From contig JAQUYG010000001.1 of assembly GCA_028691985.1 (NCBI GenBank), positions 27,617 to 91,616 on the forward strand: DNA of 64,000 nucleotides. Direction: 5' to 3'. The position numbers and the translations under genes were made by a program. This DNA comes from Minisyncoccota bacterium (GTDB taxonomy: Bacteria > Patescibacteriota > Minisyncoccia > JAHIHE01 > JAGLIN01). How positions within the stretch are numbered: position 1 is the stretch's first letter; every line of letters starts with the position of its first letter. Shown here piece after piece: positions 34,242-50,543 of the stretch. The notes beneath the pieces are model-generated. The model did not search any database. It saw only the letters and a list, made by a program, of their open reading frames with translations, and had not been told where the DNA came from.

Positions 34242-34269
34242 TGTCATTCCGAGCTTATTGAGGAATCGC
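34242..34269 (+). repeat. Partial copy (5' hairpin only) of the TGTCATTCCG repeat family
   Basis: TGTCATTCCGAGCTTATTGAGGAATCGC, compared with the copy-1 start TGTCATTCCGGGCTTGACCCGGAATCTGCG. Confidence 0.4.
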
Positions 34270-34368: not shown

Positions 34369-34950
34369 TTAATTATACAGTAAAATCTTTTTTAGTATAT
34401 TCAAAACAATCGGCAATTCACAAATACCGTCATCCCCGCCAAAATGTCTATTGTTTTCTTCAATAAAAGTTTTAACACCCATAGCCTCTTCGAAAAACAT
34501 TTTGTTTATTTCCAAAGGAACACAGGGGTCATTATCAGAAAATATTGCAAAAAAAATTTCAGACTTTTTCTTAACTTCTTGAAAATTTATCGCGTCTTTA
34601 TTCCATTCTGCGGCGATTTCATTTTCTTCGGGAGTTTCCAAGTCAAAGAGTTCGATCCACGGCACTACCATGATTACCCCGCCGCAAACTTCTCCCTTAT
34701 CAGATTTTTCTAAAAATCTCAAAATGGCCTGACATCCGATACTGTGTCCCACGAAATAAGTATTCTTACCAAAATCACCGACCAATTTTCGCAAACAATC
34801 AACCTATTCCGCTGTTTGAGGATTTTCCGTATGAGGCATCTCAGGGATTAAAACCTTAAAACCCTCTTTTTCTTCTTCCTTTTCGAGCCAAGGAAGCCGA
34901 TCTTCTTTAAGATATCCTCCCCAACCGTGGATTATAAAAAGTCTTTTCAT
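34369..34950 (-). pseudogene. RBBP9/YdeN-like serine hydrolase interrupted by an in-frame TAG (rc of 34804-34806) at the conserved Trp position
   Basis: Manual translation: MKRLFIIHGWGGYLKEDRLPWLEKEEEKEGFKVLIPEMPHTENPQTAE*VDCLRKLVGDFGKNTYFVGHSIGCQA… The nucleophile elbow GHSIG is intact. The paralog next door has W (GNWLKVIGEYG) where this gene has the stop. Confidence 0.6.
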
Positions 34951-34993: not shown

Positions 34994-35440
34994 CTATGCC
35001 TTTTCAACCGAGACATAAGGACCATTATCAGAATAATAAATATGAAAGTTTTTGCAGTTCCCTTTGATTTTTTCCCAATCGAAATCTTTATCGACAAAAC
35101 TTTTATTAATCACATCAAAATCTTCATTTCCTAAAAAATCAACAAAACCTGAAACAAAAAAACACGCCTTAATAGGTTTTTCCAATTTTTCCAAAACACT
35201 AAGAATAAAGACCGGCCCCAGAATGTGGCCGATAAAGATAGTCTCTTTATTAATGTAATATCCATATTCCCCGATCACTTTCAGCCAGTTCCCGAGACTC
35301 TGACCCGCTGGCGTAGGAAAATTAGGCACAAAAACTTGATAATTATTCCGTTCAAGCTCATCTTTCAGCCACGGAAACCAATTTTCTTTCGAGCTTCCAT
35401 AAGCGCCATGAATTATAAAAACATTTTTCATGAAATCCAT
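34994..35440 (-). CDS. RBBP9/YdeN-like serine hydrolase paralog with a Ser-to-Ile change at the nucleophile (GHILG). It ends at a TAG, and homology continues past that TAG.
   Basis: …VFIIHGAYGSSKENWFPWL…FIGHILGPVF…YSDNGPYVSVEKA*ALAERLGVEIELIKN. This aligns with VPLEINKMFFEEAMGVKTFIEEN of the neighbouring paralog. Confidence 0.55.
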   Translation of the reverse strand: MDFMKNVFIIHGAYGSSKENWFPWLKDELERNNYQVFVPNFPTPAGQSLGNWLKVIGEYGYYINKETIFIGHILGPVFILSVLEKLEKPIKACFFVSGFVDFLGNEDFDVINKSFVDKDFDWEKIKGNCKNFHIYYSDNGPYVSVEKA

Positions 35441-35647: not shown

Positions 35648-37036
35648 TCATTTCTCTGTGATAAAAAACTCCTCGCTATTGCCAGAATAAGATGTATAAT
35701 CATTTTCATATTCTGTGATATGAAACTGGTATTTATCCCCCGGATTAATCCAATCAGAGACTTTAAAAATATAACTTCCAGTATTTGGGACTTCGCCTAC
35801 TGCCGTCGTTTGCCAGACAAGTCTAGTCGCAACAGATTCGGCAGAATTATCATAAAGCGCAATATCTATCAGGTTAGTAGATTTGATCGGTGTCCATTGT
35901 AGTTCATAACTTTTGCCAATAACCCATTCGCTGTCTTTGGCAGGAGAAACAATTTCGAGCTTTTTCAGGCTATATTTTATGATTTTTTCCGGCGAATTAG
36001 TACCATCCTCCCGACATGGACCATTCAAAGTAAAGATAATCGCATCTTCCTCTTGGTTATATTCGCATTCACTGTCCATATAACCTCCCCAACTCTGTGC
36101 AGCTTCAAAAACTCTCTTGAAATCAGGAACCGAATAGACCTCGCCTGGATTTCCACCACTAAATCCGGCACTAGTACAAGCATATATATATTTTTCATCA
36201 GGAGTAACACCAAAATTTTCCCCCAAAACAGCACCCACTATACTAAGTACCTCTTTTTTACCTTTTATATCATATACTTTGCCCACATTCCATTCATAAC
36301 CAGTCATCGTATAAAGCAAAAAATCATTTTTCGGAGAAAACTCAAACCTCGAAAACCTCTTGATTTCCACTAAATTAGAATGGTCCTCATTGAATTCATA
36401 ATCCCCTTTATCAACAATCACCTCCTCTTTATCTCTTTTGACGATCAAATAAATCCCCTCTCCTCTTTTAACAGAGAAAGTTTCATATTCTCCAGAAATA
36501 ACATTTTCAGCCATAAATTCTTCCACAAAAATTGTGCTAAGTTTATCGTTTTCTGAGATAACCATCTTAACGCCATATTTATTCTCGTCTTCACCCTCGT
36601 CTTTATATCTCACGAAAAAATAAAAAGTATCACCTCCTAAATCCTGAAAGTCATAAGGCTCGGCATATTCCACTTCTCCATACCACTTTACAAACTCCTC
36701 AAAAGAAACATCCTGCTCAGCGCGCATAGCATATGCTTTTGCCAAATCTCCGGAAGAAAGCAGCTCATAATATCTCTCTATGATATCGATTTTGAGTCCG
36801 TAGGAATCATCACCCTCGTCATTTTTCCCTTCCTGAACAATACCAGCGTCATTATTCTTCTCATTTTTGTCTTGTAAACGCAAATCTGTGCCGCCTTCGT
36901 TTGTGATAGAGTATCGACAGGAGAGCAGCGCCGCAACACTAAACATCAGAATAAAGAAAGAGAAAAGATATAGGCACCTTTTTAGAAATCTCCCTGAATT
37001 TGACGCTCCCAAGCCCGGGATTTTGTGTTTTTCCAT
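35648..37036 (-). CDS. Hypothetical secreted/lipoprotein-like protein (462 aa)
   Basis: Signal/TM FFILMFSVAALLSC (lipobox-like). No confident domain was recognised. Confidence 0.45.
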   Translation of the reverse strand: MEKHKIPGLGASNSGRFLKRCLYLFSFFILMFSVAALLSCRYSITNEGGTDLRLQDKNEKNNDAGIVQEGKNDEGDDSYGLKIDIIERYYELLSSGDLAKAYAMRAEQDVSFEEFVKWYGEVEYAEPYDFQDLGGDTFYFFVRYKDEGEDENKYGVKMVISENDKLSTIFVEEFMAENVISGEYETFSVKRGEGIYLIVKRDKEEVIVDKGDYEFNEDHSNLVEIKRFSRFEFSPKNDFLLYTMTGYEWNVGKVYDIKGKKEVLSIVGAVLGENFGVTPDEKYIYACTSAGFSGGNPGEVYSVPDFKRVFEAAQSWGGYMDSECEYNQEEDAIIFTLNGPCREDGTNSPEKIIKYSLKKLEIVSPAKDSEWVIGKSYELQWTPIKSTNLIDIALYDNSAESVATRLVWQTTAVGEVPNTGSYIFKVSDWINPGDKYQFHITEYENDYTSYSGNSEEFFITEK

Positions 37037-37130
37037 TTAAATATTTTATATTTATTAAAAATATTATATAATACTTTCAATATAAAAAAAAGGTACATTT
37101 TGTATCTTCTATAAAAAATAATAAAATCAT

Positions 37131-38156
37131 ATGAAAAAACTTTTTACCGTTCTGGCCGCTTTTATATTTCTGGCCATCCCCGCCCATGCATCAGAAATTG
37201 TCGAGGGCGCAGTCATCAAAACTGCAAATAATCCCGATGTCTATATCGTAAAATATAACAGCGGAAAAAGTTACAAGCGGTTGGTTCTGAATCCGCAAGT
37301 TTTCGAAAGTTATGGACACCTTCGCTGGGAGGACATTTTAACCGTCGACCAAGAGACTCTAAATAAGTTCACAACTTCCGACTTAGTGCGAGTGGACGGA
37401 ACCTCTGAAATTTATCAGCTCACACCAAACGGAGATACCGGCAGCAAGGTTCCTATAGACAATCCCACCGAAGTTGACCTTAATAGCATATATACGATCA
37501 ACCATACCGATTTCGGAAACTATTTAAATCCATCGAACGCGGAGCTATCCGGCCCTTACGAAATTTATCAAGTCATCGACGGCGACACCTTCTCGGTCAC
37601 GATCAATGGCATAATCCAAACCGTGCGCCTAATCGGTATCGACACGCCTGAAGTTGCCAGCGCAGTGACCGCTCGGGAATGTTATGGAGAAGAAGCATCC
37701 ACAGCCGCCAAAGAACAGCTGACCGGCAAGAAGGTGTATTTAGAATCCGATGCTGTTTCCGGCGATACTGACAAATATGGACGACTATTACGATATGCTT
37801 ATCTGGAAAATAATACGCTTTTCAACAAATGGATGATTGAAGAAGGCAACGCCAAAGAATACACCTATGCCGGACAGATTTATAGATACCAAACCGAGTT
37901 CAAAACGGCGCAAGCATCTGCAAAAACTGCCCAGAAAGGACTCTGGGGAATTGAAATCTGCGCCCTCTCAGATGTAAGTTCAGAGAAAGACGCTTATATC
38001 TGCTCCGCCGACACTTATAATTGCTCCGATTTCGCGACTCAAACCGAAGCGCAAAACGCCTACGCCTACTGTCTCAACCAAACAGGCACTGACATCCACC
38101 GCCTAGATTCAGACGATGACGGAGTAGTGTGCGAAGGGTTGGAACAAAATATCTGA
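37131..38156 (+). CDS. Secreted thermonuclease (SNase-like) with C-terminal Excalibur Ca-binding domain
   Basis: Signal peptide, then SNase core: VIDGDTFSVTINGIIQTVRLIGIDTPEV…YGRLLRYAYLENNTLFNKWMIEEGNAKEY. Excalibur: DSDDDGVVCE. Confidence 0.8.
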   Translation: MKKLFTVLAAFIFLAIPAHASEIVEGAVIKTANNPDVYIVKYNSGKSYKRLVLNPQVFESYGHLRWEDILTVDQETLNKFTTSDLVRVDGTSEIYQLTPNGDTGSKVPIDNPTEVDLNSIYTINHTDFGNYLNPSNAELSGPYEIYQVIDGDTFSVTINGIIQTVRLIGIDTPEVASAVTARECYGEEASTAAKEQLTGKKVYLESDAVSGDTDKYGRLLRYAYLENNTLFNKWMIEEGNAKEYTYAGQIYRYQTEFKTAQASAKTAQKGLWGIEICALSDVSSEKDAYICSADTYNCSDFATQTEAQNAYAYCLNQTGTDIHRLDSDDDGVVCEGLEQNI

Positions 38157-38231
38157 ATTTAACTAAGCATTGACAGAATTCATTGTTTTGTCGTACCTTT
38201 AAGATGTCAAAGATAAAAAGAGGTTGATATT

Positions 38232-38648
38232 GTGAAAACAAAAATTCTTCCAGAAGACATAGATACCAAAGGAAATTTTTTAAATACCTTTGGAAAGTTA
38301 GAGTATGAACTTATGGTAAGATTGATTGTAGAGAAATGCCAGAGATTCAATAGATGGGATCATTTCTCGCTGCGAGGAATACTTGACCTCGTAGAGGCGG
38401 ATTGTCCTGAACATATTATTTGGCGCACCCTGTGTCCAAAAGCCATCCTCAATCAACTTGTTGAAAATGGCTGGATAATTGACGAAAAAAACGGATATTA
38501 CAATATCACAGATGATTTGATAAAAAGATGCCACGAAAGGCATCCCACCAACAAAAAAGCACCTCCCAACACTTTAGAGCAATCAAGAACAGGATGGAGA
38601 AAAGTCAAAAAAGATGAAGAATATTTCGTTCCTCCGCCCTCAGAATAA
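38232..38648 (+). CDS. Hypothetical protein (GTG start)
   Basis: 138 aa; no recognised family. Confidence 0.35.
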   Translation: MKTKILPEDIDTKGNFLNTFGKLEYELMVRLIVEKCQRFNRWDHFSLRGILDLVEADCPEHIIWRTLCPKAILNQLVENGWIIDEKNGYYNITDDLIKRCHERHPTNKKAPPNTLEQSRTGWRKVKKDEEYFVPPPSE

Positions 38649-38652
38649 TTTT

Positions 38653-38690
38653 TACTACACTTTTTATTTTTTAAGTGTAGTTTTATTTTT
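38653..38690 (+). terminator. Intrinsic terminator
   Basis: ACTACACTT-tttatttttt-AAGTGTAGT followed by TTTATTTTT. Confidence 0.55.
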
Positions 38691-38728
38691 CGACCTAATC
38701 GACCATTTATCTAATAATCGTTTTTCAC

Positions 38729-38751
38729 CTGTCATTGCGAAGAGGCAATCT
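38729..38751 (+). repeat. Partial copy (5' hairpin) of the TGTCATT repeat family
   Basis: CCTGTCATTGCGAAGAGGCAATC (ATTGC/GCAAT hairpin) lies 65 nt upstream of full copy 1. Confidence 0.35.
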
Positions 38752-38815
38752 AAATTTATCCCCGCGGAGGCGGAGATGAAAATCCCGTCACTACAGTTTA
38801 CAAAACATTGTCTCC

Positions 38816-39008
38816 TGTCATTCCGGGCTTGACCCGGAATCTGCGTTATATTTCGCTTTTACTTTACTATAACACTTAATCGTTATGCTTCGTAGATTGC
38901 GGATATTTCGCAGTAACGAAATTCCGGAATGACAAATATTGTGAGTTTGACATTTGAGAAAAATTCTTCGGAATATTTTATATAAAAACTATCAACGAAT
39001 TAAGTAGC
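38816..39008 (+). repeat. Full copy 1 of a ~195-nt structured repeat, candidate ncRNA / MITE core
   Basis: It is ~85% identical over ~195 nt to 49956-50147. It starts TGTCATTCCGGGcttgaCCCGGAAT (8-bp hairpin) and has a subterminal AATTCCGGAATGACAAA. Confidence 0.6.
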
Positions 39009-39027
39009 CTGTAAGGGAATAACAAAA

Positions 39028-39060
39028 AAAGAAACGATTTCAAAATCGTTCTTTTTTATG
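39028..39060. terminator. Bidirectional intrinsic terminator (glnA 3' end)
   Basis: AAAAAAAGAAACGATttcaaaATCGTTCTTTTTT. Confidence 0.55.
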
Positions 39061-39076
39061 CAAACTATATCAAGTT

Positions 39077-40450
39077 CTAATAAACTTCTATATATCTTTC
39101 CTTCTCCCAATCAGTCACATGGACCCTGAATTCTTCCCACTCTGCCATCTTGATGTTGTAATACCTCTTGAATAGATCTTCCCCCAAAACAGATTTGATA
39201 AGTTCGTCTTTCTTGAGCTCATCCAGTGCCTCGCGCAAATTGTGCGGAACAGTATCAATGCCACGATTCACGATTTCTTCCGGTGTCATCTCATAAGTAG
39301 ACTCCTCAATCGGCTTGGGCGGAGTCATCTTGTTTTTCACTCCATCCATTCCCGCCGCCAACATCACCGCATAAGCAAGATATGGATTGCAAGTCGGGTC
39401 CGGACATCTGAGCTCGCAACGAGTCGAATTCGGTGATTTCGGATTTACGCGCGGAATCCTGATAAGCGCACTGCGGTTAGTCCTTCCCCAAGAAATATAA
39501 ACTGGCGCTTCATAACCGACAACCAGTCTCTTATAAGAATTAACAGTCGGATTAATAATAGCATTCATCGCCTTGATATGCTTCAACTGCCCAGCCACAA
39601 ATTGCTCGGCAATATCCGAAAGTCCATATGCACTTTGTTCGTCAAAAAAAGCATTCTTCCCGCCCTTGAACAAACTTTGATTCGTATGCATCCCTGAACC
39701 GTTAATGCCCTCAAACGGCTTTGCCATAAAAGTCGCGTGTAGTCCTAGCTCTTTAGCAACCATTTTCAGGACATATTTAAAAGTTATGGTATTGTCTGCT
39801 GATTTGATCGGACCGTCATATTTAAAATTAATTTCATGCTGACCATTTGCAACTTCATGATGGAGCGCCTCCACATCGATTCCAAAATTACCCAACGCGA
39901 TTCCCATCGCATGTCTTGTTGCCGCATCCCCATCGATCGTTTGATCAAAATATCCACCTTTATCGTGAGGCATTCTTTCCAGTGAACCATCACTATTCCT
40001 CTTCATTAGGAAGAACTCTACTTCCGGCGCCACACAATAATCGAAGCCCATCTCCTTTGCTTTCTCCATTTGCTTTCGCAAAATATATCTAGGGTCACCC
40101 TCAAACGGCTTCCCATCCGGAGTCAGAATATCGCAAATAACCCGTGCTTCCGTATGACCGTTTCCAGTCGTCCAAGGAATCACACGAAAAGTCGACATGT
40201 CCAATTTCAAAAACATATCACTTTCGGAAATCCTGGCAAAACCGTCAATTGAAGAACCGTCAAACCACTTACCGTTTTCAATCGCCTCCTCCAATTGATG
40301 AACGGGTATAGTTACCGCCTTAAGCGCCCCCAAAAGATCAGAAAACTGCAAATGTACAAACCTGACTTCATTTGCCTCAATTTCCTTTCGCACCTCTTCA
40401 GATAGCATAATTTTTGAGATATAAAAGATTAATAAAAACCAAAAAATCAA
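39077..40450 (-). CDS. glnA: Glutamine synthetase, type I
   Basis: 457 aa; …GSGMHTNQSLFKGGKNAFFDE…; the overall length and pattern match GlnA. Confidence 0.9.
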   Translation of the reverse strand: MIFWFLLIFYISKIMLSEEVRKEIEANEVRFVHLQFSDLLGALKAVTIPVHQLEEAIENGKWFDGSSIDGFARISESDMFLKLDMSTFRVIPWTTGNGHTEARVICDILTPDGKPFEGDPRYILRKQMEKAKEMGFDYCVAPEVEFFLMKRNSDGSLERMPHDKGGYFDQTIDGDAATRHAMGIALGNFGIDVEALHHEVANGQHEINFKYDGPIKSADNTITFKYVLKMVAKELGLHATFMAKPFEGINGSGMHTNQSLFKGGKNAFFDEQSAYGLSDIAEQFVAGQLKHIKAMNAIINPTVNSYKRLVVGYEAPVYISWGRTNRSALIRIPRVNPKSPNSTRCELRCPDPTCNPYLAYAVMLAAGMDGVKNKMTPPKPIEESTYEMTPEEIVNRGIDTVPHNLREALDELKKDELIKSVLGEDLFKRYYNIKMAEWEEFRVHVTDWEKERYIEVY

Positions 40451-40687
40451 AATTACTGCATAATTTTGACCCCTCTTTCGACCCGCTCTCCAAGAGCAAG
40501 CCTTCCTTCTATAAAGAACTAAAAATAAAAAAGAGTGTTTTTTTAATTCTTATTTTAAAATACTTATTAAGTATCTCACTTTGAAAAAAAATGTCAATGC
40601 ACAAAAACCTAAGCCTTTGTATAAAACAGTATTTTATGCTATTCTACAAGAAATAAATATTAGATAAAAATTATAAACATAGAATCA

Positions 40688-41116
40688 ATGAGGCTTAATG
40701 ATACTGAAAGTGAAGAAACTCCCAAAAGAGATTTTTTAAAAGCCATAGAAGGGATAAAAGACAGTGGTGAGCGCGAAAAAGAAATGAAAAAGGGGGATTT
40801 TATTAAAATACCGTCTGATAAATTTAAAAGATGGATTGGCGATGTTATTTTCGGAGATGAAAAATCTCTAGACAATTCAGAAGAAATAGAGGTTAAAATC
40901 TTAGAAAAAAAATATACAGAGGATGATTTTGGCAATAAATCCAATAAAGTGTTAGTTGAAGGAGGTGGTGTAAAAAAAGTAGTTTTTGCGAGTTTGTTTT
41001 TTAACTATGGTAAACCTTCAGACGATTCAGGCGATACAGATAAAGTTTTTGTGAATGGTGGTAGCGGTTTTAACCAAGCAACTGATACCGATGGTCTTAA
41101 TTATAATGTAGGATAA
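40688..41116 (+). CDS. Hypothetical acidic/Gly-rich protein
   Basis: 142 aa, low complexity. Confidence 0.3.
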   Translation: MRLNDTESEETPKRDFLKAIEGIKDSGEREKEMKKGDFIKIPSDKFKRWIGDVIFGDEKSLDNSEEIEVKILEKKYTEDDFGNKSNKVLVEGGGVKKVVFASLFFNYGKPSDDSGDTDKVFVNGGSGFNQATDTDGLNYNVG

Positions 41117-41180
41117 AGCTTTGTCATTAAATTTTTAATGAGTTTAATCTGACAATAGTTATGGCCGAAGACTAATCTCA

Positions 41181-41209
41181 TTGACAAATGTATTTGTCTA
41201 TGCTATATT
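41181..41209 (+). promoter_or_regulatory. Sigma70-like promoter upstream of the DEAD-box helicase gene
   Basis: TTGACA-N17-TATATT. Confidence 0.5.
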
Positions 41210-41310
41210 GGTTTGATGACTAACGACAATTCTTTTGCAGTTTTATATATTATAAAATTCTGACCTTAAGGATAATCGGGTCGGAATTTTTATTTTTTAT
41301 AAATACCAAA

Positions 41311-43125
41311 ATGGAAAAACAGACATTTGAAGGTCTGAACATAAGACCGGAGATTTTGGGGGTGCTCGGTAAACTTAATTTTAGCACTCCTACTCCCATC
41401 CAAAGCCAGGCAATCCCAGTGGCGATCAAAGACAACGATGTAATCGGAATCGCCCAGACAGGGACTGGAAAAACTCTAGCTTTTGGAGTCCCGACTATTC
41501 AGAAATTAATGGACTCAAAAGGCTTAGCCCTGATAATCCTCCCTACGAGAGAGCTGGCTTTGCAGGTAGATGAGTCTCTCAGCAAAATCTCCAGAAATTT
41601 CAACCTAAGGTCGGTAGTCCTGATCGGTGGACAAAATATGAACAAGCAATTGCGAGATCTTAGAGCCAACCCGAGAATTATCATTTCAACTCCCGGCAGA
41701 CTTATTGATCACCTGGAAAGAAAAACCGTTCGCTTGGAAAAAGTGGAGGTTCTTGTGCTGGACGAAGCGGACAGGATGCTCGATATGGGATTTGAACCGC
41801 AGATAAAAAGGATATTACAGTCCGTACCGCAAGAAAGACAAACGATGCTTTTTAGTGCCACTATGCCGGCAGCAATCGTCAATATTGCCAATCGATATAT
41901 GAAGACTCCGCTAAGAGTGGAAGTCGCCCCGGCAGGAAGCGCAACCGAAAATGTCACTCACGAGATTTTCTTTGTAAAGGACAGCTCTAAATTGTCACTT
42001 TTAGAAAGCGTACTTAAAGATAGAAAAGGCAGCGTTCTGGTTTTTTCCAGAACTAAACATGGCGCCAAACGAATCGCTTTTGCGCTACGCAAAATGGAAT
42101 ATACCTCAACTGAAATTCACTCTAATAGAACACTTGCACAAAGAATGAGTGCGTTAGAAGGATTCAAAAAGGGCAGATACCAAGTAATGGTTGCCACTGA
42201 CATCGCCGCCCGCGGAATTGATGTTAAAGGCATCGAACTGGTTATAAATTACGACCTGCCAGATTCTCCAGAAGATTATGTGCACCGTATAGGAAGAACC
42301 GGCCGAGCTGAAAATCTCGGACACGCGATTTCTTTCGCCACGCCACGACAAGCTCATGATGTTCGCATTATCGAGAGACTTATCAAAAAAGAATTGCCGA
42401 TTTCCAAGCTTCCTGAGCTTGCTCAATTAGATCCTTCTATAAAAGAAGAACTAGCCAAGAGAGAAAGTGAACGAGGGCAGAGAGGGCGAGACGACAACAG
42501 AAGGTCTCCGTCTTCAGAAAGCCGCGGACACAGTGCTTCCGGCAGTCGCTATGGAAGAAGTGCGAAACCTGCCGACACTGTTTCGAGAGAGAAACGGGAG
42601 GTAGAAAGCAATCCTCGCCGAGGATTCCTTCCTAAACGATCAAACAGTCGTCCTTACGAAAAAACCGCATCTTCCCTAGCACAAAAGGGTAAAGACTTCT
42701 ATAAAGATTTTAACAAAGACAGCTTTTTTGAAAGCTCTGATTACAAAAAATCAGATAGCAAGGACGAAAGAACCCCTAGGGCTACCAATAGAGGTTTTCA
42801 AACAAATCACAACGAAGGCGCAAATCGCAAATCCTATGGTCACACAAGTCGACCGAACCACAATTCTTCCAACAGAAGGGGCTATAAAGACTCCAAGGAT
42901 GAAAGGATTATTCAACCAGCGGCCCGCTCAGCGAAAAGAATCTCTACTCTCGAAGAGGGACAGCAGGATAGTTATGTACAAGAACCATTTATGAATGCCA
43001 ACAAGAAACCTGACTATCGCAAACCTTTCGGCACATACAAATCTACCCAAAGAGGAAAAGGCGGCAATAGCCGTGCACCTTTCAACAAAGGTCCAAGAAA
43101 AACAGCCGCTCGAACTTCAAGATAG
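41311..43125 (+). CDS. DEAD-box ATP-dependent RNA helicase with ~230-aa basic/RG-rich C-terminal tail
   Basis: Q-motif region …FSTPTPIQSQAIP; motif I AQTGTGKTLAF; DEAD (VLDEADRMLDMGF); SAT; HRIGRTGRAG. The C-terminus is rich in R/G/S/K/N. Confidence 0.9.
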   Translation: MEKQTFEGLNIRPEILGVLGKLNFSTPTPIQSQAIPVAIKDNDVIGIAQTGTGKTLAFGVPTIQKLMDSKGLALIILPTRELALQVDESLSKISRNFNLRSVVLIGGQNMNKQLRDLRANPRIIISTPGRLIDHLERKTVRLEKVEVLVLDEADRMLDMGFEPQIKRILQSVPQERQTMLFSATMPAAIVNIANRYMKTPLRVEVAPAGSATENVTHEIFFVKDSSKLSLLESVLKDRKGSVLVFSRTKHGAKRIAFALRKMEYTSTEIHSNRTLAQRMSALEGFKKGRYQVMVATDIAARGIDVKGIELVINYDLPDSPEDYVHRIGRTGRAENLGHAISFATPRQAHDVRIIERLIKKELPISKLPELAQLDPSIKEELAKRESERGQRGRDDNRRSPSSESRGHSASGSRYGRSAKPADTVSREKREVESNPRRGFLPKRSNSRPYEKTASSLAQKGKDFYKDFNKDSFFESSDYKKSDSKDERTPRATNRGFQTNHNEGANRKSYGHTSRPNHNSSNRRGYKDSKDERIIQPAARSAKRISTLEEGQQDSYVQEPFMNANKKPDYRKPFGTYKSTQRGKGGNSRAPFNKGPRKTAARTSR

Positions 43126-43145
43126 AACCTTATGAATTCTACACC

Positions 43146-43177
43146 AAAAAAACACCCTAAGGAGGGTGTTTTTTTGA
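43146..43177. terminator. Bidirectional intrinsic terminator
   Basis: AAAAAAACACCCTaaggAGGGTGTTTTTTT. Confidence 0.7.
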
Positions 43178-43246
43178 TTCTTACGGCCTATAATTAAAAA
43201 ATGACTTAGACATTTTCTCCTCCTCTTCTTGCAACATTTTCATTTT

Positions 43247-43579
43247 CTAATCCATCTTGCCCCTCATCTTTTTTAAATTATCCCCATATTTTTCCCGCCA
43301 ATCAGGAATTTTATCCTTGATTTTTAAAATCTTTTTCTCATACGCACCTTCCAAGTCTATGTCATACGAATTGCAAAGAGAAATCAATCCCACTAATACA
43401 TCGGCGCACTCGTCTGCCAATTCATTCTTTCGATTTTCTCCATACATTTCAATCTCCATTACCTCCTGAGCAAGCTCCCCTACTTCTTCAAAAAGCCCTA
43501 CCACATTTCCTAAGCGAGGATGCTCAATACCAGACATAATATGTCCCTGTTCGTCCTGGAGGTTTCTTAAAGTTTTCAT
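43247..43579 (-). CDS. MazG-like nucleoside-triphosphate pyrophosphohydrolase (small, single domain)
   Basis: …FEEVGELAQEVMEIE…ELADECADVLVGLISLCNSYDIDLEGAYEKKILKIKDK is an EExxE…D MazG/all-alpha NTP-PPase signature. Confidence 0.7.
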   Translation of the reverse strand: MKTLRNLQDEQGHIMSGIEHPRLGNVVGLFEEVGELAQEVMEIEMYGENRKNELADECADVLVGLISLCNSYDIDLEGAYEKKILKIKDKIPDWREKYGDNLKKMRGKMD

Positions 43580-43585
43580 GTATTT

Positions 43586-44125
43586 CTAATTATTTTCTTC
43601 ATTAATCCTATATAACTCCTCTTTATATTTTTCTTGAAGCATTCCCCAAATCTCTCCCGCAAGCACCCCCTCTGTAATATCCAGAAAATCAGCGATTTTA
43701 TCCAAAATAATTACTTGTGTCTTTTTGTCAGTCAAAGATAAGTAAAAGCCATTATCATAAAGATCTGCGAGTTTCACCGCTACTGCCTCAGTACCACGCT
43801 GGATTATGCGATCAAAATTTTCTTTGTACCTTTCTTTATAGACACTAATATTTTCATCCTCTGACAAACTCGCCACATTACCAGCGATATTTTCTCCAAA
43901 CTCTCGTTCAATATCCTCAATCTTCACTGCCGAATCCTCAATCAGATCATGAAGCATCGCAGTAATTACAGTTTCCGCATTTGCTCCAGTATTCATTAAA
44001 TAAAAAGCAACACGCATACTATGCAGTACTACAGGTTTGGGATTGTGTCCGCTCTTAGCATATTCACTACACAAAAAACAAATTGCTTTCTCAATTTGGA
44101 AAGAATCCTGATTGCTAATTTGCAT
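43586..44125 (-). CDS. HD-domain hydrolase of RelA/SpoT (small alarmone hydrolase-like) type
   Basis: …HSMRVAFYLMNTGANAETVITAMLHDLIEDSAV…FGENIAGNVASLSED shows the H…HD…ED pattern of the (p)ppGpp-hydrolase HD_4 fold. Confidence 0.65.
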   Translation of the reverse strand: MQISNQDSFQIEKAICFLCSEYAKSGHNPKPVVLHSMRVAFYLMNTGANAETVITAMLHDLIEDSAVKIEDIEREFGENIAGNVASLSEDENISVYKERYKENFDRIIQRGTEAVAVKLADLYDNGFYLSLTDKKTQVIILDKIADFLDITEGVLAGEIWGMLQEKYKEELYRINEENN

Positions 44126-44151
44126 ATTTTTATTTTTATAATAAATATGGC

Positions 44152-44582
44152 TTATGGCTTACCCAATAATTTACAACACTCTCTCGTATAGGGCGAGATA
44201 TTTTCCGGGACTTCCCTACACTCGAAACAAGCAACTTCTTCATTCTTATCTTCTTCCAAGTTCTGTGCCTTTTCCTCTGTCTTAGCAGAAAAATCGATCG
44301 CCAACCAATGTTTTCCGTCTTTTATGTAATCATTATAGTTTATTAGCGCGATATCAGAGATATCAACTCCAAGATCTTCCTTGACTTCTCTCCTGAGCGC
44401 CTCCTCACAAGTCTCACCGAATTCCACAGTGTTTCCCAGCATTGACCAGATACCTTCGTAACCCTCCCCCTTCTTTTCCGAAGACTTGGCTTTTGTTAAA
44501 ATAATTTTCCCCTCGCTATTTTTAACAAAAGCAAAACACCGAATCCGATGAAATCTCTGCCCGGTTTTAAAATATTTTCCAT
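44152..44582 (-). pseudogene. Nudix hydrolase with an apparent -1 frameshift at an A5 run. It may be a homopolymer sequencing error.
   Basis: N-terminus MENILKPGRDFIGFGVLLLLK| then the downstream frame NSEGKIILTKAKSSEKKGEGYEGIWSMLGNTVEFGETCEEALRREVKEDLGV (Nudix box GxxxExxExxxxAxxRExxEExG). One extra A in the AAAAA run would join the two frames. Confidence 0.55.
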
Positions 44583-44597
44583 ATTTTTAAAATTATT

Positions 44598-44990
44598 TTA
44601 CCAAAAATACCTTGCGGACTCCATAGGCTTTATATAATTAGGAGGATAATATTTCAATAGTCCTGGATTTATTTCTACCATTGAAGCTTTGTATTCCCTA
44701 TCGCATTGATAAACACAGTTCGCCTGCTTTTCTTGAGTTTCCATATTTTTTTCGTTATCGCCATATGTCCTAAACATTTGACCTGGATTCTCCGCCTCAG
44801 AACACTCATAGACACACATCATATAGATATTCCCTTGTGTCCTTTCAGCGTTATCGTGTAAATACCACCACCACCAAATAAAAAATACAAAAAGTATTAC
44901 GAGCTTTCCAAACGAAGAAACAAGACGACGCTTTTCCACAAGACTTAGTCCGCCCTTACTTTTATCCATACTATAGTCCTTATGAATCAT
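44598..44990 (-). CDS. Hypothetical single-TM protein with Trp-rich TM and Cys-containing ectodomain
   Basis: …LVILFVFFIWWWWYLH… plus 5 Cys. No family was recognised. Confidence 0.35.
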   Translation of the reverse strand: MIHKDYSMDKSKGGLSLVEKRRLVSSFGKLVILFVFFIWWWWYLHDNAERTQGNIYMMCVYECSEAENPGQMFRTYGDNEKNMETQEKQANCVYQCDREYKASMVEINPGLLKYYPPNYIKPMESARYFW

Positions 44991-45011
44991 AATTTAAGAT
45001 TAAAATTATTT

Positions 45012-45587
45012 TTATCCCAAAAATGGATTTTTCATATCAAACAAAATCCGCGGGGTATGATTATTCACGATATCTTCCGAGACTCCGTATTTTTCTTTGT
45101 AAAGTTTTGAAATTGCGCAAACGCGGCATTTTTCAATATCATATCCCAGTGATTTTACCGCCTCAACAACTGTTTTTTCATCGGGACCTTCAACCTCGAT
45201 AATCGGCTCCAAAAAAGGCCATTCGTCAATCACCACTTCGCATTTTCCCAAAGTCCAAGTTTCCCGCCTTTTTTCACTACGAGCTTTCTCACGAGCACCC
45301 ATCGTCTCCAAAAACTCAGAAGCCTCCTCCATACTTTCCGCAAAGAAACAAAATTCTCTTTGATCGGTAATTTTTTTACCGTCTATAATCTTAAGGCTCA
45401 TTGTAATCTTTTCGCCCTCATCGCGCACCCTGAGCCAACCACCCGCAATCTCACGCCCCGAAGGAAGATGTAACATAATATTTTTTTGCACATAAGAACT
45501 TTTTTGCAAAACCGCACCGATTTTTTGCAAACGGTTTTTTGCGTCTTCAATATTCACATCAGGAATTTTTAATTCAAATTCTATCAT
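45012..45587 (-). CDS. CYTH-domain protein (CyaB/ThTPase-like triphosphate tunnel metalloenzyme)
   Basis: The N-terminal MIEFELKIP carries the ExExK motif. The length and the pattern of charged beta-strands fit CYTH. Confidence 0.7.
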   Translation of the reverse strand: MIEFELKIPDVNIEDAKNRLQKIGAVLQKSSYVQKNIMLHLPSGREIAGGWLRVRDEGEKITMSLKIIDGKKITDQREFCFFAESMEEASEFLETMGAREKARSEKRRETWTLGKCEVVIDEWPFLEPIIEVEGPDEKTVVEAVKSLGYDIEKCRVCAISKLYKEKYGVSEDIVNNHTPRILFDMKNPFLG

Positions 45588-45699
45588 AATATATCGATTA
45601 TCTTAGCTATTCTTATTTACCCGAATTATAGCACAACAAACACACAAACAAAAAAAAGAAGAGCCAGATCTTCTTTTTTAAATATTTTTCATCTATAAA

Positions 45700-46689
45700 T
45701 TACGGTTGAAAAACTCCGCCTTCCGGTAAAATTTCCACAGACTTTACTTCCACGAACTGTTTCGCTGTCTTTTCGATCTGAAGCCTCAGAACATTGACTC
45801 GACAAGATCCTCCGCTAGTTGAAAAATCGGGATCGTCAAAAGCCAAAGATAGAACACCCTCATTACTCAAAGAAACATTCTCCAACTTCAACCCCTCAAG
45901 AGGAAACTCCGAACTTATGCCCGCCGTCGTTTCTATATCAGTCACGACCCCTTCCAACAAAAGCTTTATCGTATCCTCAATGACATCATCAGACTCAAGC
46001 ACTCTGCGTCCGACCACAACCATGCCAGATTCGGAACATGCCACATATCCATTTTCTTTTTCGTCTTTATAGGAGCTGTAATAGTATAACGAGACATCCC
46101 TCCACTGCTCTCTGGTCCCAAAATCAACAGGAACTTCCAGACTGTCATCATACTCTCGTATATCGGAAGGATTCTCTTTTTCAAAAACCAAAGAACCTTT
46201 CCCCCAGGCAGTATTTTTAAATCTTAAAACGACCTCGAACGGCACGAAGTCCGTTGTCATCCAATCAGCCTTGGCCTGAGCGACTGCAACTCCCAATTCA
46301 TTCTTATCTTTATCATAAATCCTAACCGGAAAAGACCCCTCGAAAAACCAAGTTCCTCTCGCCTCCCCGGTAACTTTGAGCGGACTGGATATGAGATCAT
46401 TCGGTTGTACATTATCAACTCGAATCAAATCTGACTTATCTTCCTTATCAGGAATGACTTCCTCCACAAAAATTTCTCCATCGGGAGTTCTACATTGCCT
46501 GGGATAAGATTCCATGATCTCATACCCAGCATTCAGACATTCTTCAAAACTTGCCACAACGGCAGAAGGGGTCGATCCGTTACCAAGGCCATCTTTTTTA
46601 TTGAGGACATAAAGTAAACTTGATATCACAAGCAGAAAAGCACCCAAAAACGATAACAAGGTCAGCAGAATTTTATTATTTTTCGTCAT
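45700..46689 (-). CDS. Secreted protein with Gmad2 Ig-like and GerMN-like domains
   Basis: N-terminal TM/signal; …VTGEARGTWFFEGSFPVRIYDKDKNELGVAVAQA…FEVVLRF is the Gmad2 pattern. Confidence 0.45.
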   Translation of the reverse strand: MTKNNKILLTLLSFLGAFLLVISSLLYVLNKKDGLGNGSTPSAVVASFEECLNAGYEIMESYPRQCRTPDGEIFVEEVIPDKEDKSDLIRVDNVQPNDLISSPLKVTGEARGTWFFEGSFPVRIYDKDKNELGVAVAQAKADWMTTDFVPFEVVLRFKNTAWGKGSLVFEKENPSDIREYDDSLEVPVDFGTREQWRDVSLYYYSSYKDEKENGYVACSESGMVVVGRRVLESDDVIEDTIKLLLEGVVTDIETTAGISSEFPLEGLKLENVSLSNEGVLSLAFDDPDFSTSGGSCRVNVLRLQIEKTAKQFVEVKSVEILPEGGVFQP

Positions 46690-46749
46690 ATCTTTTTATT
46701 ATTTATTTTATAAGATTATTATAACACAAGATGATGTATAACACGAAAA

Positions 46750-47268
46750 TCATATTTTTCTACTGTCGTATGCCCAGTGCAAAAGCGATTGCCTCTGTTT
46801 CTTGCGACAACCAAGATCTCCTTTTTGACAATTTTTCCAGACCTGCGCGATGTGCCGTTTCATCGCTTTCCAACGCCTAACCTGCCGCGGGTCGTCTTCA
46901 TGCCTGCGCCCCATATAATATCGACAATACCACTGAAACCACCCCCGCGGGTCGTCAGTATGTATCCATCCCTTTTCTCGCCAGACAGAAAGTGGCATAC
47001 TCGCCCTAACTCCGAAAAAATTTAAACTGCAATCGGCCTTGTCGCCCTTTGCAAGCTTAGCATGGGAAAACCAAACCTTCGGAAATTCCCTCGTACAGTC
47101 CCGCATATATTTCCCGCAAAACACGCCCATCTCCAACATCTCTTTTGGCGTCAACTCTGGCTTGAAATCCTCGGCAAAATTCTCCCCGACCGATTCGGAA
47201 AGTTCATAACGATAATTTTTTTGCATCTTATCGTTAACGATGACAATTTTTTTGTTTTTTAGAGGCAT
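46750..47268 (-). CDS. Conserved hypothetical protein with an internal tandem HxDDPRxW repeat
   Basis: …GWIHTDDPRGWFQWYCRYYMGRRHEDDPRQVRRW… A nucleotide direct repeat CCGCGGGTCGTC occurs twice, at 46880-46960. Confidence 0.35.
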   Translation of the reverse strand: MPLKNKKIVIVNDKMQKNYRYELSESVGENFAEDFKPELTPKEMLEMGVFCGKYMRDCTREFPKVWFSHAKLAKGDKADCSLNFFGVRASMPLSVWREKGWIHTDDPRGWFQWYCRYYMGRRHEDDPRQVRRWKAMKRHIAQVWKNCQKGDLGCRKKQRQSLLHWAYDSRKI

Positions 47269-47304
47269 AATTTTTATAATATTCCTGATACTTACGCATC
47301 CAAA

Positions 47305-48141
47305 TTACCCCTTCCCGACCACTAGCATCGCTTTTTTCACTTCATCAACCGGCTCGTTAAATCCGGTTTTATAATCGCGAATCGAATCCATAAAAATATT
47401 ATAATCATAGTGATAATTTGCGCCATATCGCGTTCCTGGGTCATGGGTTATGAACTCACCCGCCCTATCGTCATAACCGATCACGATCATCTCATGAAAC
47501 TCCGGACCCGGTGCTGTATAATGAGGATTTTGGAGTTTAACTCCGTTGATCGGCACAATAACCAGATTCCCTTCAGCAAGCTCCTTTTTTATATCTTCCA
47601 ATGAGATGTCGTATTTAGTAAAAGCCCTTCCAGAGGCAAAATATTCATTCCACAATTTAAGAGTATCGGCAATCGAAAGGTCATAAGCACCACTGAAATT
47701 CTCATCCTCAAATTCCGATATCGTGATAATCTCTTCGAGGGCTTTGTCGGGACTTAATGGTTTCCCTAATATCCAATAATACGCCATCAAAAGCGATGCC
47801 TCTTCACAACCATGCTGTTGCCTTGGATCCTCCCAATCTCCGAAAGGAGCCTGCGAAGCGAAAGGAACATTTTTGATTATGATTGTCCGAGGAATATCTA
47901 TTTCTTCTGGCAAAATCTCGCTTTCATTTCCAATCTCATTAGAATCGTCTCTTTTTTCTCCCTCTATATCATCGGTTATTATGCCGCTATCCCCGCTTGA
48001 GCCTCCATTTTCAATTTCAAGCTGAGTATATGGAGGAAGCGGCTCATCTGAAATAGTTCCAACATAAAAATAAGCTGAAATAAGAATTAAAGCACAAAAA
48101 ACAAACAATATTTTGTAATTTATTTGAAAATTCATAAACAA
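47305..48141 (-). CDS. Secreted C39-like (papain-fold) peptidase domain protein
   Basis: Signal/TM; …SQAPFGDWEDPRQQHGCEEASLLMAYYW… (Cys region) and …MIVIGYDDRAGEFITHDPG… (His region), as in Peptidase_C39_2. Confidence 0.55.
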   Translation of the reverse strand: MFMNFQINYKILFVFCALILISAYFYVGTISDEPLPPYTQLEIENGGSSGDSGIITDDIEGEKRDDSNEIGNESEILPEEIDIPRTIIIKNVPFASQAPFGDWEDPRQQHGCEEASLLMAYYWILGKPLSPDKALEEIITISEFEDENFSGAYDLSIADTLKLWNEYFASGRAFTKYDISLEDIKKELAEGNLVIVPINGVKLQNPHYTAPGPEFHEMIVIGYDDRAGEFITHDPGTRYGANYHYDYNIFMDSIRDYKTGFNEPVDEVKKAMLVVGKG

Positions 48142-48161
48142 TAAATTAACATTTTATCGTC

Positions 48162-48653
48162 CTAAAAGATTCTTTTTCTCACTTGGCAAGCCGAGTTATT
48201 TCCGCTTTTTAGATAGTATTTTTGATGATAATCTTCCGCAACATAAAAATTCTTCACAGGAGAAATTTCTGTCACGGCATCGATACCTTTTTCTTTCAAA
48301 ATATCCACGAGCTTATCTGCAATTTTCTTCTGTTTTTCACTCACATAAAAAATTGCGCTGCGATACTGATCTCCGATATCTGGACCCTGACGATTTTTCT
48401 GCGTCGAGTCGTGAATTTCAAAAAAGGTTTTCGCTAGAGTTTCAAAATCAAGTTCATTCGCGTCAAAAACAATCTCCAAAGTTTCGGCATGACCCGTGTC
48501 GCCCCTACAAACTTTCTCATAAGTCGGACTTTCCGTTTTTCCACCCATATAACCCACACGCGTCGAAACAACCCCTTTCAAATTTTGGAAAGAATCCTCT
48601 ACTCCCCAAAAACATCCACCGGCAAAATACGCTTTTTGTATTTTATCCTTCAT
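48162..48653 (-). CDS. msrA: Peptide methionine-S-sulfoxide reductase
   Basis: The active-site region [12 protein letters not shown] is present. Confidence 0.9.
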
Positions 48654-49017
48654 GTTTTTTTATAAAATCCAAAGAAATAGAATTAACGCAATACCGTGTA
48701 TTCTTGTCTGTCATCCCTTCCCCCAAAAAAACATGCCCCAGATGCGCACCGCAATTAGCGCAAATGATTTCCGTTCGAATTTTATCTGCGTCATTAACCC
48801 TTTTGACTGCACCCCCAATTTCATCATCGAAACTTGGCCAGCCGCAATTAGAGTTAAATTTGTCCCCGGAGTTATAAAGCTCTGCCCCACACCTTTTGCA
48901 AGTATAAACCCCCTCTTCGTCAGAATTAAAATACTTTCCTGAAAATGGCCTTTCAGTCATTTTTTTAACGATAACGTCTTCTTCCTCTGGAGTAAGTTTT
49001 TTGTATGCTTTCTCCAT
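48643..49017 (-). CDS. msrB: Peptide methionine-R-sulfoxide reductase
   Basis: …[13 protein letters not shown]…[17 protein letters not shown]… is the SelR zinc/active-site pattern. It overlaps msrA by 11 nt. Confidence 0.9.
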
Positions 49018-49198
49018 ATGGCTTGAATAATGATTATATTGGAACTATTATGGCACAACAAAAAGATAAAGTCACTTTTTTATCCGCAGGGTAGTTTTCA
49101 TTGTTCTTATCAAAATCCACGATTTTTCGACAGGATACAATTAGCACAACCCTTCTTAAAACAAATAGAATAATGATTAATTTTAGCCAACCATTTTT

Positions 49199-49687
49199 TC
49201 AAACTTCTGCGAAAATAATCATATAATTATGTCCGAACTTCTTGGCGCATTTCGGACAATAAGCATAATGAACATAATATTTTTTAGCCTTCTTTCCGAC
49301 TCCGGCTAAATATTTATCCATCTGTTTTATCAATTTAGGGATTGCATTATACGAATCATCGAAAACCTTGCTAATAAATGTTCCTGAAATCACAGCATTG
49401 TTCGCGCCAGGAACATTTCCTGTCACAGACAAATACAGCTCCGATCTAAAAGCAGAAGGATCACAAAACAAAACCAGAGTGTCCTCTTTATCGTCCGAAG
49501 TAGCTTTTACCTCCTCTGCCATCTTCCACATCTTAGATATCTTTTTACCGATCATAGGAGGAAAAGGAAGATGAAATAATGTAGGTATAGACTCTTTGAT
49601 AAATTGTTTATTATCCCAATCTAATGTCTTTTCGTCCCATTTCTCTAGGTTAAATTTGGGACAACATTCATCGTTTTCTTGGTTCAT
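49199..49687 (-). CDS. Hypothetical protein with C-terminal CPKC motif
   Basis: 162 aa; no confident family. Confidence 0.35.
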   Translation of the reverse strand: MNQENDECCPKFNLEKWDEKTLDWDNKQFIKESIPTLFHLPFPPMIGKKISKMWKMAEEVKATSDDKEDTLVLFCDPSAFRSELYLSVTGNVPGANNAVISGTFISKVFDDSYNAIPKLIKQMDKYLAGVGKKAKKYYVHYAYCPKCAKKFGHNYMIIFAEV

Positions 49688-49837
49688 ATATTTATTTTAT
49701 CACAAATTATATGCCATTTTAACGGTAAACCCTATTTCAGAAATAAATCAATATTAAACAAACTAGAATGAAATTAACAGATTAAAGCTATTATAACCCA
49801 GAAAGAAACAAAGTCATTTTTTCTATGATGAATAGAT

Positions 49838-50241
49838 TATAAGAACCTCTGAAAAACTAAGAGCTATTGATTTTAAGTGCTAACAGCTCCTGTACAAGCT
49901 AGATAATTCGAGAACAAAACACCGCATAAATTTCATCCATATTATATTTTTCGTGTGTCATGCCGGGCCCCAACCCGGTATCTTCGTTATATTTCGCTTT
50001 TACTTTACTATAATGCTTAATCGTTATACTCCGTAGATTCTGGATATTTTGCAGTAAAGAAATTCCGGAATGACAAATACTGCGTTTTCGGCATTTTAGA
50101 AAAATTCTTCGAAATATTTTATACAGGAACTGTCAGTGAATTAAGTAACTTGTACAATTCCTGCAGAGGCGGGAATCTAGACTTGAAGGAAAAAGATAAA
50201 TTTAAAAATCGATATTTCTTAGTTTTTCAGAGGTTCCTATG
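49838..50241. mobile_element. MITE-like non-coding element (404 bp). It has 22-bp terminal inverted repeats and nested subterminal inverted repeats, and carries full copy 2 of the structured repeat.
   Basis: TIR-L AAGAACCTCTGAAAAACTAAGA at 49841-49862. The reverse complement of TIR-R (50217-50238) is AGGAACCTCTGAAAAACTAAGA, a 21/22 match. A nested pair GCTCCTGTACAAGCT (49881) / ACTTGTACAATTCC (50151) lies inside. There is no ORF over 60 aa. Confidence 0.5.
49956..50147 (+). repeat. Full copy 2 of the ~195-nt structured repeat
   Basis: It aligns end-to-end with 38816-39008. The 5' hairpin ATGCCGGGccccaaCCCGGTAT keeps pairing through a G·U wobble relative to copy 1. Confidence 0.6.
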
Positions 50242-50258
50242 TATTTTCTATTAAAAAT

Positions 50259-50543
50259 TCAATAACTATCTTTTTTATCTTCTGAAAATAATCTCTTTTT
50301 TATAATTTCTAATTTATCCTCTCGCGATAACTTTTTGATTCGAGCCTCTTCCTTGGTCGCAGTCGACCTAGTTCGGAAAGATTTAGAAAACAAAAGTTCC
50401 ACCGGCCGACGAGACTTTGTATATTTCGCACCCAACTTCGAAAAATTATGTTCTTCCACTCTCCGCGCCAAATCCACCGTAATCCCGGTATAAAGTGTCC
50501 CGTCCGCACATTTTAATATATAGAGGTAATACATAATATTCAT
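50259..50543 (-). CDS. GIY-YIG nuclease superfamily protein (UPF0213/YhbQ-like)
   Basis: MYYLYILKCADGTLYTGITVDLARRVEEHN is the GIY…YIG motif. Confidence 0.75.
   Translation of the reverse strand: MNIMYYLYILKCADGTLYTGITVDLARRVEEHNFSKLGAKYTKSRRPVELLFSKSFRTRSTATKEEARIKKLSREDKLEIIKKRLFSEDKKDSY

Follow-up and report, generated by a model that had tools for sequence, protein, structure and literature searches.

The window examined here, a 64,000-nt stretch of contig JAQUYG010000001.1 from a Minisyncoccota bacterium, is ordinary chromosome that carries ftsZ, ftsA, nrdD, hisS, topA, dprA, glnA and recQ, and it contains two copies of a short intergenic repeat. Copy 1 (from position 38816) lies between the converging ends of a 138-aa open reading frame (ORF) and glnA, and copy 2 (from position 49956) has a 94-aa GIY-YIG gene on one side and a 162-aa hydrolase gene on the other, each of them on the minus strand. 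An earlier inspection of the nucleotides, hereafter the sequence-only reading, had noticed the pair and suggested a small RNA, a riboregulator or the core of a miniature inverted-repeat transposable element (MITE). Of these the MITE-like idea proves closest, and the two RNA ideas are not supported by the tests described below. The best explanation, to which we give a probability of about 0.68, is that the repeat is a dispersed, non-coding, nested DNA element built from head-to-head TGTC-tagged hairpins like those of repetitive extragenic palindromic (REP) sequences and the Neisseria NTS, and that these hairpins are sites in single-stranded DNA (ssDNA) for an Ssn-type nuclease rather than parts of a structured-RNA gene.

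Comparison of the window with itself aligns 38832-39013 with 49973-50154 at 86% identity over 182 nt without a gap, and 38816-39013 aligned to copy 2 from 49956 is 84.4% identical over 199 nt with one indel, so the reported pair (~195 nt, ~85% identical, intergenic) is confirmed. The element itself is larger than that. The conserved block that had been noticed ~70 nt past the end of the unit is also seen here, continuing ~80 nt beyond a GACA motif, and alignment of copy 2 with its relatives gives a conserved unit of ~265 nt (window ~49891-50156) with imperfect ~25-nt terminal inverted repeats of its own (TGTACAAGYTAGATAATTCG.. and ..CGAATTAAGTAACTTGTACA; termini TGT...ACA). The extra sequence on the left, about 63 nt, is present in copy 2 and 11 other copies, and copy 1 is without that left part. 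The minus-strand mini-ORF that had been described in both copies (24 codons with 7 changes) does exist, measured here as 25 codons with 7 differences. It is intact in only 7 of the 14 family members introduced below, no ORF is conserved across the repeat family, and we rejected a coding reading, since this frame (…YLSFRNF…) is the usual spurious translation of a hairpin. The parts of the two copies, and two short singleton hairpins elsewhere in the window, are as follows:

38816..38841, plus strand: copy 1 left tagged hairpin, with a TGTC tag, an 8-bp stem ATTCCGGG/CCCGGAAT, the 5-nt loop cttga, then C
38842..38891, no strand: copy 1 spacer between the hairpins, conserved in the 14-copy alignment (A6); it holds GTTATA/TATAAC, which has no pair support
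38892..38934, minus strand: copy 1 right tagged hairpin, minus-strand TGTC-ATTCCGGAATTTCG-ttactg-CGAAAT(A)TCCGCAAT-C
38935..39013, no strand: copy 1 right part of the ~265-nt outer element, whose outer right terminal inverted repeat is 38989-39013
49803..49874 (core 49839-49874), no strand: left arm of the outermost inverted repeat at copy 2; the whole block is absent from the related locus L134
49891..49916, no strand: copy 2 outer left terminal inverted repeat TGTACAAGCTAGATAATTCGAGAACA, 73% of cells paired with the right arm
49956..49982, plus strand: copy 2 left tagged hairpin, TGTC-ATGCCGGG-CCCCAA-CCCGGTAT-C
50033..50075, minus strand: copy 2 right tagged bulged hairpin, with GACA at its plus-strand end
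50076..50156, no strand: copy 2 right part of the outer element, whose outer right terminal inverted repeat is 50130-50156
50157..50177, plus strand: small hairpin ATTCCTGC-AGAG-GCGGGAAT, then C, abutting the outer element
50205..50276, no strand: right arm of the outermost inverted repeat, overlapping the final codons of the adjoining GIY-YIG gene
38730..38750, plus strand: short hairpin TGTCATTGCGAAGAGGCAATC, tagged with TGTC and with 5 bp in its stem, perhaps a degenerate singleton that belongs to another stem type
34242..34267, plus strand: TGTCATTCCGAGCTTATTGAGGAATC, a tag and 5-bp stem, then C; a marginal singleton whose structure is indistinguishable from chance

The palindrome ATTCCGGAAT and the GACA behind it had been taken for a palindromic end of the unit, but this palindrome belongs to a 14-bp bulged hairpin (38896-38930), of which it forms the 3′ arm and which is a mirror image of the 5′ hairpin. 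Read on the plus strand, the copy 1 right hairpin has a stem of 8 + 6 bp with one bulged T and is followed by GACA; the right end of the core is in effect the left tagged palindrome in inverse orientation with an extra upper stem and one bulged base. Since the left and right ends are mirror images, 38816-38934 and 49956-50075 are 119-nt head-to-head hairpin doublets in which the tags face outwards across ~50 nt of conserved spacer, and each hairpin has an unpaired GTC tag, a stem that starts A-T/T-A and a C right after the palindrome. The ~265-nt unit encloses the doublet as a second layer, and at copy 2 there is a third, a 72-nt inverted repeat (49803-49874 / 50205-50276) whose arms are 71% complementary, 89% in their 36-nt core. 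Arms related to this outermost layer are found on both sides of the copy at L131a and on one side of that at L124b, and hairpins like 50157..50177 stand on the right flanks of L124b, L127, L126 and L135. Around the outer element of several copies there are TGTCATTCC... and ...GGAATGACA half-sites or one more ATTCC...GGAATC hairpin. When the 481-nt block is folded as single-stranded DNA it forms one nested hairpin with z = -4.6.

A family-specific scan of metagenomes gave 12 loci, and after duplicate removal there are 14 distinct copies that are 80–88% identical to copy 2, are all intergenic (14/14), and lie mostly between unidirectional or convergent genes. They occupy non-orthologous sites in related Paceibacterota genomes and metagenomes; for example, at least two full-length copies (L078 and L118, ~84% identical) are present in the metagenome-assembled genome (MAG) STD2_77 of Ca. 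Paceibacterota, and their flanks have no synteny with the window. A broader pattern scan of genomes with AATTCCGGAATGACAAA allows no copy number per genome to be derived, as about half of its listed matches are chance or coding (e.g. the HNSGMTK motif inside the GIY-YIG genes L082 and L104). Two scans of viral contigs found no copies, and the window has no tRNA or tmRNA as an integration target. One retrieved locus, L129, is the window's own copy-2 locus (99.9% identity), and short-read (Logan) contigs stop inside copy 2 from both sides, as expected of a multi-copy repeat.

The most informative relative is L134, which is syntenic with the window at 83–89% nucleotide identity across 36784-50385. 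At the copy-2 locus it has an empty site, with ~54 nt in place of the ~450 nt (window ~49823-50277) that make up the entire copy-2 composite. At the copy-1 locus it has the full 265-nt element and a second left-type hairpin upstream, an arrangement which suggests that window copy 1 is the product of a deletion between two direct left hairpins; such a hairpin-to-hairpin deletion would account for the T-A of copy 1, against the G.T of most copies, at the pair that had been described as covarying. Another indel lies beside copy 1, a ~560-nt segment (38137-38700) with the 138-aa ORF (38232-38648, no Pfam match) that is absent from L134. The copy 2 neighbourhood is likewise a zone of gene gain and loss: the Bact_hydrolase gene (49199-49687) and a Big_7-domain gene (50658-51488), which flank the GIY-YIG gene in the window, are absent from L138, where the gene order is recQ, GIY-YIG, msrB, msrA. 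The C-terminus of the GIY-YIG protein differs in L134, which is without the insertion.

The nested terminal inverted repeats, the non-orthologous intergenic sites, the presence/absence difference with L134 and the hairpin rearrangement together are why we regard the repeat as a dispersed DNA element. Its plus strand is on the C-rich strand in 11 of the 14 copies (a GC-skew orientation of 11:3, suggestive only). GC skew in the window itself is negative in all 2-kb bins from 1 to 64000, weakest (~-0.01) at 40–42 kb and 52–54 kb, and the minus strand carries most of the window's genes; the whole stretch is probably part of one replichore.

To what kind of repeat do such hairpins belong? The CGTC-tagged REPs have an unpaired CGTC (with TGTC and CCTC variants), stems of 8–9 bp that start from AT, loops of 4–5 nt and short tails; they are mainly intergenic, mostly arranged as head-to-head dimers with conserved spacers, have frequent G.T pairs and no linked transposase, and their superfamily includes Neisseria dRS3 and Rickettsia RPE-4/RPE-6 (Di Nocera, De Gregorio & Rocco 2013, PMC3733652). 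The Neisseria NTS (CGTCATTCCCGCGMAVGCGGGAATCYRG) forms a hairpin to which SsnA binds, cutting a few nt upstream of it, next to CGTCATTCCCGCG..GCGGGAATC (Chenal et al. 2025, PMC11893778). This enzyme, a GIY-YIG nuclease of 94 aa with a single domain, acts only on ssDNA of the correct strand and not on RNA or double-stranded DNA; the three bases before the palindrome (GTC) and the C after it are critical for its binding and cleavage, and ssn genes (the cd10448 clade) are typically flanked by these motifs in an arrangement like that of an insertion sequence (IS) (PMC11893778).

The window repeat shares with the CGTC-tagged REPs a (C/T)GTC tag, an 8-bp stem starting A-T/T-A, a loop of 5–6 nt, a tail that begins with C, G.T pairs, head-to-head dimers (theirs have spacers of 20–100 bp), intergenic location and the lack of a linked transposase. 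Of the aligned copies, all 13 that include the left hairpin have TGTC before it, and 14/14 have GACA behind the right hairpin; the GTC 5′ and the C 3′ of the palindrome, the critical Ssn bases, are conserved. The left hairpin (stem ATKCCGGG, 8 bp, loop 5–6 nt) fits the published stem definition (8–9 bp, A-T/T-A start), and in being multi-copy (14 copies), intergenic and head-to-head with a conserved spacer the family agrees with what defines the REP superfamily. It differs from the CGTC-tagged REPs in its right hairpin, which departs from that definition with an extended 14-bp (8 + 6) stem, a bulged T and a 6-nt loop; in part in its tails, which are CTG/CTT (left) and CTA (right; the C conserved), CTK/CTA against the REP consensus CCA, superfamily relatives having mostly CCA or CTA; in having the dimer inside a conserved ~265-nt element with further inverted-repeat layers; and in its Paceibacterota host. 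Its TGTCAT-TCC...GGA-ATC is close to the NTS, with the GTC tag and the post-palindrome C kept. Like REPINs/BIMEs and the Neisseria NIMEs, it consists of inverted palindromic doublets that can fold as one long hairpin, in mosaic, nested intergenic arrays that are hot spots of recombination and rearrangement. REPINs, however, have a GTAG tag and a RAYT (Y1 HUH) transposase, whereas this repeat has a TGTC tag and no RAYT in the window: the GTAG before its right hairpin is the complement of that hairpin's tail and not a REPIN tag, and no Y1_Tnp domain was found in the window's ORFs, which were the extent of that search.

The right hairpin type is also found well beyond this family. Among the loci retrieved, from at least 20 genomes, there are 36 variants of the form ATTCCGGA-(T)-[variable, fully compensated upper stem]-TCCGGAAT-GACA, their hosts including Patescibacteria, Anaerolineae, Calditrichia, Flavobacteriia and Gammaproteobacteria, and the flanking C after the palindrome is present in 35 of the 36. 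Hairpins that match the strict SRM pattern lie head to head with the bulged type, 57–67 nt from it, at six loci in five other genomes, a further likeness to the NTS/SRM system. In the Patescibacteria MAG JBAXYM01 such hairpins are the 42-nt ends of a ~135-nt doublet present at no fewer than 13 sites; this MAG also has (L028 and other loci) a second abundant palindromic repeat of ~115 nt with GATCACACCAGAAATGGTGTGA, which occurs in both orientations and often beside tagged doublets. The REP survey covered five phyla, Paceibacterota/Patescibacteria not among them (PMC3733652), and the Ssn study, which was based on RefSeq, nowhere uses the word "Patescibacteria" in its main text (PMC11893778). 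The repeat is a new family, in a new host phylum (Paceibacterota), of the known REP/NTS kind.

Genes for GIY-YIG proteins stand beside tagged hairpins at two of these loci. At L111 (4920-5518 of JBAXYM010000036.1, the same Patescibacteria MAG) a 97-aa GIY-YIG ORF (PF01541, E = 2.5e-17) has a 43-nt tagged hairpin on each side, the two being inverted relative to each other, as in NTS-ssnA-NTS, and these are the same hairpins that end the ~135-nt doublets at 13 or more sites in that MAG. The L111 protein has the two GIY-YIG tyrosines and the catalytic glutamate spaced as in SsnA (Y6, Y17, E64) and is a putative Ssn family member; cassette and short doublets look like an autonomous/non-autonomous pair. 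At L074 (5960-6760, Flavobacteriaceae bacterium R38) a GIY-YIG ORF (6290-6592) lies amid several CGTC-tagged hairpins of another stem type (ATTGCGAGG...CGAAGCAAT), with one bulged ATTCCGGA hairpin there as well.

The structure of the repeat was tested on the 14-copy alignment, in which 13 copies cover the left hairpin. The sequence-only reading gave the 5′ hairpins correctly, as it did the change from T-A to G.T that separates the two window copies. Pairing holds in 98% of the cells of the two terminal hairpins, with double changes at two pairs, and only 4–7 of 500 shuffles reach the observed covariation score and percentage paired. The focal pair of the left hairpin is G.U in 5 copies, A-U in 4, U-A in 2 and mismatched in 2, and this exchange across the family shows that the hairpin is really maintained. 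What RNAalifold retains is limited to the pair of terminal hairpins, their closing pairs TGTC/GACA and one weak helix in the centre, with a covariation term of -0.74 kcal/mol. The outer inverted repeats are 73% paired, and combined with the inner long-range stem they score no better than shuffles. The second hairpin that had been proposed to covary, GTTATA...TATAAC, does not survive: its end pairs are broken in 6–8 of the 14 copies, no pair in it shows a double change, and it pairs less well than the mean of the shuffles. Maintained pairing is a property already described for REP-type hairpins (PMC3733652) and does not discriminate RNA from single-stranded DNA, and so, although the 5′ hairpin does keep its pairing, the proposal that G.U covariation marks a plus-strand RNA is not supported.

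Other tests of an RNA gave little. The 265-nt unit folds modestly and nearly equally on its two strands (z = -2.0 plus, -1.8 minus). Rfam gave no match at gathering score over the whole window, and around the copies, with E up to 10, only chance-level matches of which the best had E ≥ 0.5, so no family was matched and no known RNA identified. Scans for promoters and terminators found none common to both window copies, and there is no terminator-like T-run after the hairpins save for one weak call at copy 2. The absence of an Rfam match, the -0.74 kcal/mol covariation term, the restriction of pair conservation to two hairpins and the like folding of both strands all argue against a dedicated non-coding RNA (ncRNA).

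Two further partial copies had been reported, at 34242 and 38729, each consisting of only the 5′ hairpin. They share with the repeat only TGTCATT, a 5-bp stem and the following C, and are at best degenerate singletons of the same superfamily; the hairpin at 38730..38750 is kept at the same place in L134. Tagged 5-bp hairpins number 12 in the window against 8 expected, about chance, and a generic tagged-hairpin scan of the window gave no excess over shuffles, so that few hairpins of this kind are present in it. The marginal hairpin at 34242 lies just downstream of two minus-strand ORFs (34369-34794 and 34994-35440), each with a partial match to Ser_hydrolase PF06821 (profile 54-171 and 2-133, respectively), which may be a disrupted gene or two truncated paralogues. 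Directly after the ORF at 40688-41116 there is a TGTC-tagged, AT-rich 9-bp hairpin (41123-41149, TGTCATTAAATTTTTAATGAGTTTAATC) that could be a terminator or another tagged repeat. Three 31-nt direct repeats at 18493-18907, in the topoisomerase I gene, are its three C4 zinc-ribbon domains and thus an ordinary coding repeat.

How might a repeat of this kind arise and act? The hairpins would form in single-stranded DNA during replication, transformation or repair, and would then be recognised by an Ssn-type GIY-YIG ssDNA nuclease with a single domain, the gene for which would lie elsewhere in the genome. The composite could spread and rearrange through ssDNA cutting and rejoining, or through recombination at the hairpins, and the outcome would be mosaics like the Neisseria NIMEs or the E. 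coli BIMEs; RNA effects, such as hairpins in 3′ untranslated regions (UTRs) or antisense read-through, may occur but would be secondary. Recognition by such a nuclease, with spread and rearrangement at the hairpins, would be the most likely mode of action judging by the anatomy, the L111 cassette and the published biochemistry on relatives.

Several observations weigh against this explanation. No Ssn-like gene is present in the 64-kb window, and the degenerate SRM pattern HGTCWYN(0-2)YYVSBRHN(0-5)WNVSBRGN(0-2)RNCYNB has no match there on either strand, since the stem of the window's hairpins is one base pair too short for it. The L111 protein is a putative rather than an established member of the Ssn family. 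No target-site duplication or clean junction was recognised. The 94-aa GIY-YIG protein encoded beside copy 2 is of the UPF0213 type (PDB 1ywl E = 2e-17, 1zg2 E = 5e-15), and its orthologues at five loci in four other genomes of the candidate phyla radiation (CPR) lie in tight gene arrays with no tagged hairpins. Finally, the non-Watson-Crick cells of the two hairpins, read on the plus strand, are G.U in 13 cases and A.C in 1, with the bias in both hairpins, counts that are small, come from non-independent events and are partly biased by the search pattern. This bias suggests that selection acts on the plus strand of the entire composite as one single-stranded molecule, whether RNA or DNA, and it is at odds with selection on the tagged strand of each hairpin separately.

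The UPF0213 type and the hairpin-free orthologues led us to rule out the adjoining gene as the source of the cognate nuclease. Its protein is 32% identical to the L111 protein and 70–85% identical across Patescibacteria; a 'Candidatus Pacebacteria' MAG supplies its best database match, at 100% identity, and its close homologues all belong to Patescibacteria, which puts the window in the CPR. In L134 the gene is there but the repeat beside it is not, and the gene's position next to copy 2 is probably a coincidence.

A stronger form of the nuclease explanation would make the nested elements active non-autonomous mobile DNA, moved in trans by an Ssn-type nuclease, with the L111 cassette as the autonomous form. 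We think this unlikely; if it were true, a GIY-YIG-driven single-strand 'hairpin transposon' system would be widespread in CPR bacteria, and the G.U bias would mark the mobilised strand.

About equally doubtful is that the repeat is a REP-type RNA element whose hairpins, in 3′ UTRs or antisense transcripts, stabilise, terminate or process the mRNAs of neighbouring genes. The uniformly intergenic copies, mostly between unidirectional or convergent genes, and the frequency of G.U pairs on one strand are the same two features from which transcription of many tagged REPs has been argued (PMC3733652). Of the 7 unidirectional contexts, however, 6 have the G.U-tolerant plus strand antisense to the genes around it, so that read-through RNA would bear the A.C version; T-run terminators are lacking but for the weak copy 2 call; and the empty site in L134 indicates that the neighbouring genes manage without the element. 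Effects on mRNA of this sort are compatible with the DNA-level explanation and do not exclude it.

A classical MITE, in which a deletion derivative of an IS is recognised at its TG...CA terminal inverted repeats by a DDE transposase, has a somewhat lower standing still. The repeat is like a MITE in being short (<300 nt), non-coding, multi-copy and polymorphic in presence between relatives, with TGT...ACA termini and three nested levels of inverted repeats. MITEs come with a target-site duplication and a cognate transposase, and here no duplication was recognised at any level, whether beside the aligned copies or at the L134 empty site, and among the 63 ORFs searched, all from the window, there is no gene for an integrase or a transposase (Y1 type included) and no second GIY-YIG gene. 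Just one longer element with these ends was found, and what it encodes is a GIY-YIG protein and not a transposase; the ends are hairpins conserved across several phyla, unlike IS-specific inverted repeats, and the outer inverted repeats are imperfectly paired (the 73% above).

Least probable is the sequence-only reading's own proposal of a free-standing, plus-strand structured small RNA or riboregulator, which has in its favour the pair-preserving changes, the plus-strand G.U pairs and the plus-strand fold (z = -2.0), but against it the lack of an Rfam family or of a promoter or terminator common to both window copies, pair conservation confined to two terminal palindromes, a minus strand that folds equally well, copies that are dispersed, nested, polymorphic and partly deleted, and a characterised binding protein of the hairpin superfamily that does not bind RNA (PMC11893778).

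The explanation as a nested DNA repeat of tagged hairpins removes a false lead, in that what looked like covarying RNA hairpins are the termini of a REP-type DNA element. With it the (C/T)GTC-tagged REP / NTS-like superfamily reaches Paceibacterota and Patescibacteria, and the analysis documents a hairpin variant, bulged and long-stemmed, that is common to many phyla, shows three-level nesting of hairpins with an empty-site polymorphism, and adds a CPR case of a GIY-YIG gene bracketed by the hairpins of short repeats. In practice, such repeats break short-read assemblies of CPR genomes and could mislead screens for ncRNAs. If the link to Ssn is true, the way in which tagged REPs multiply could be studied cleanly in the small genomes of CPR bacteria, where other mobile elements are few.

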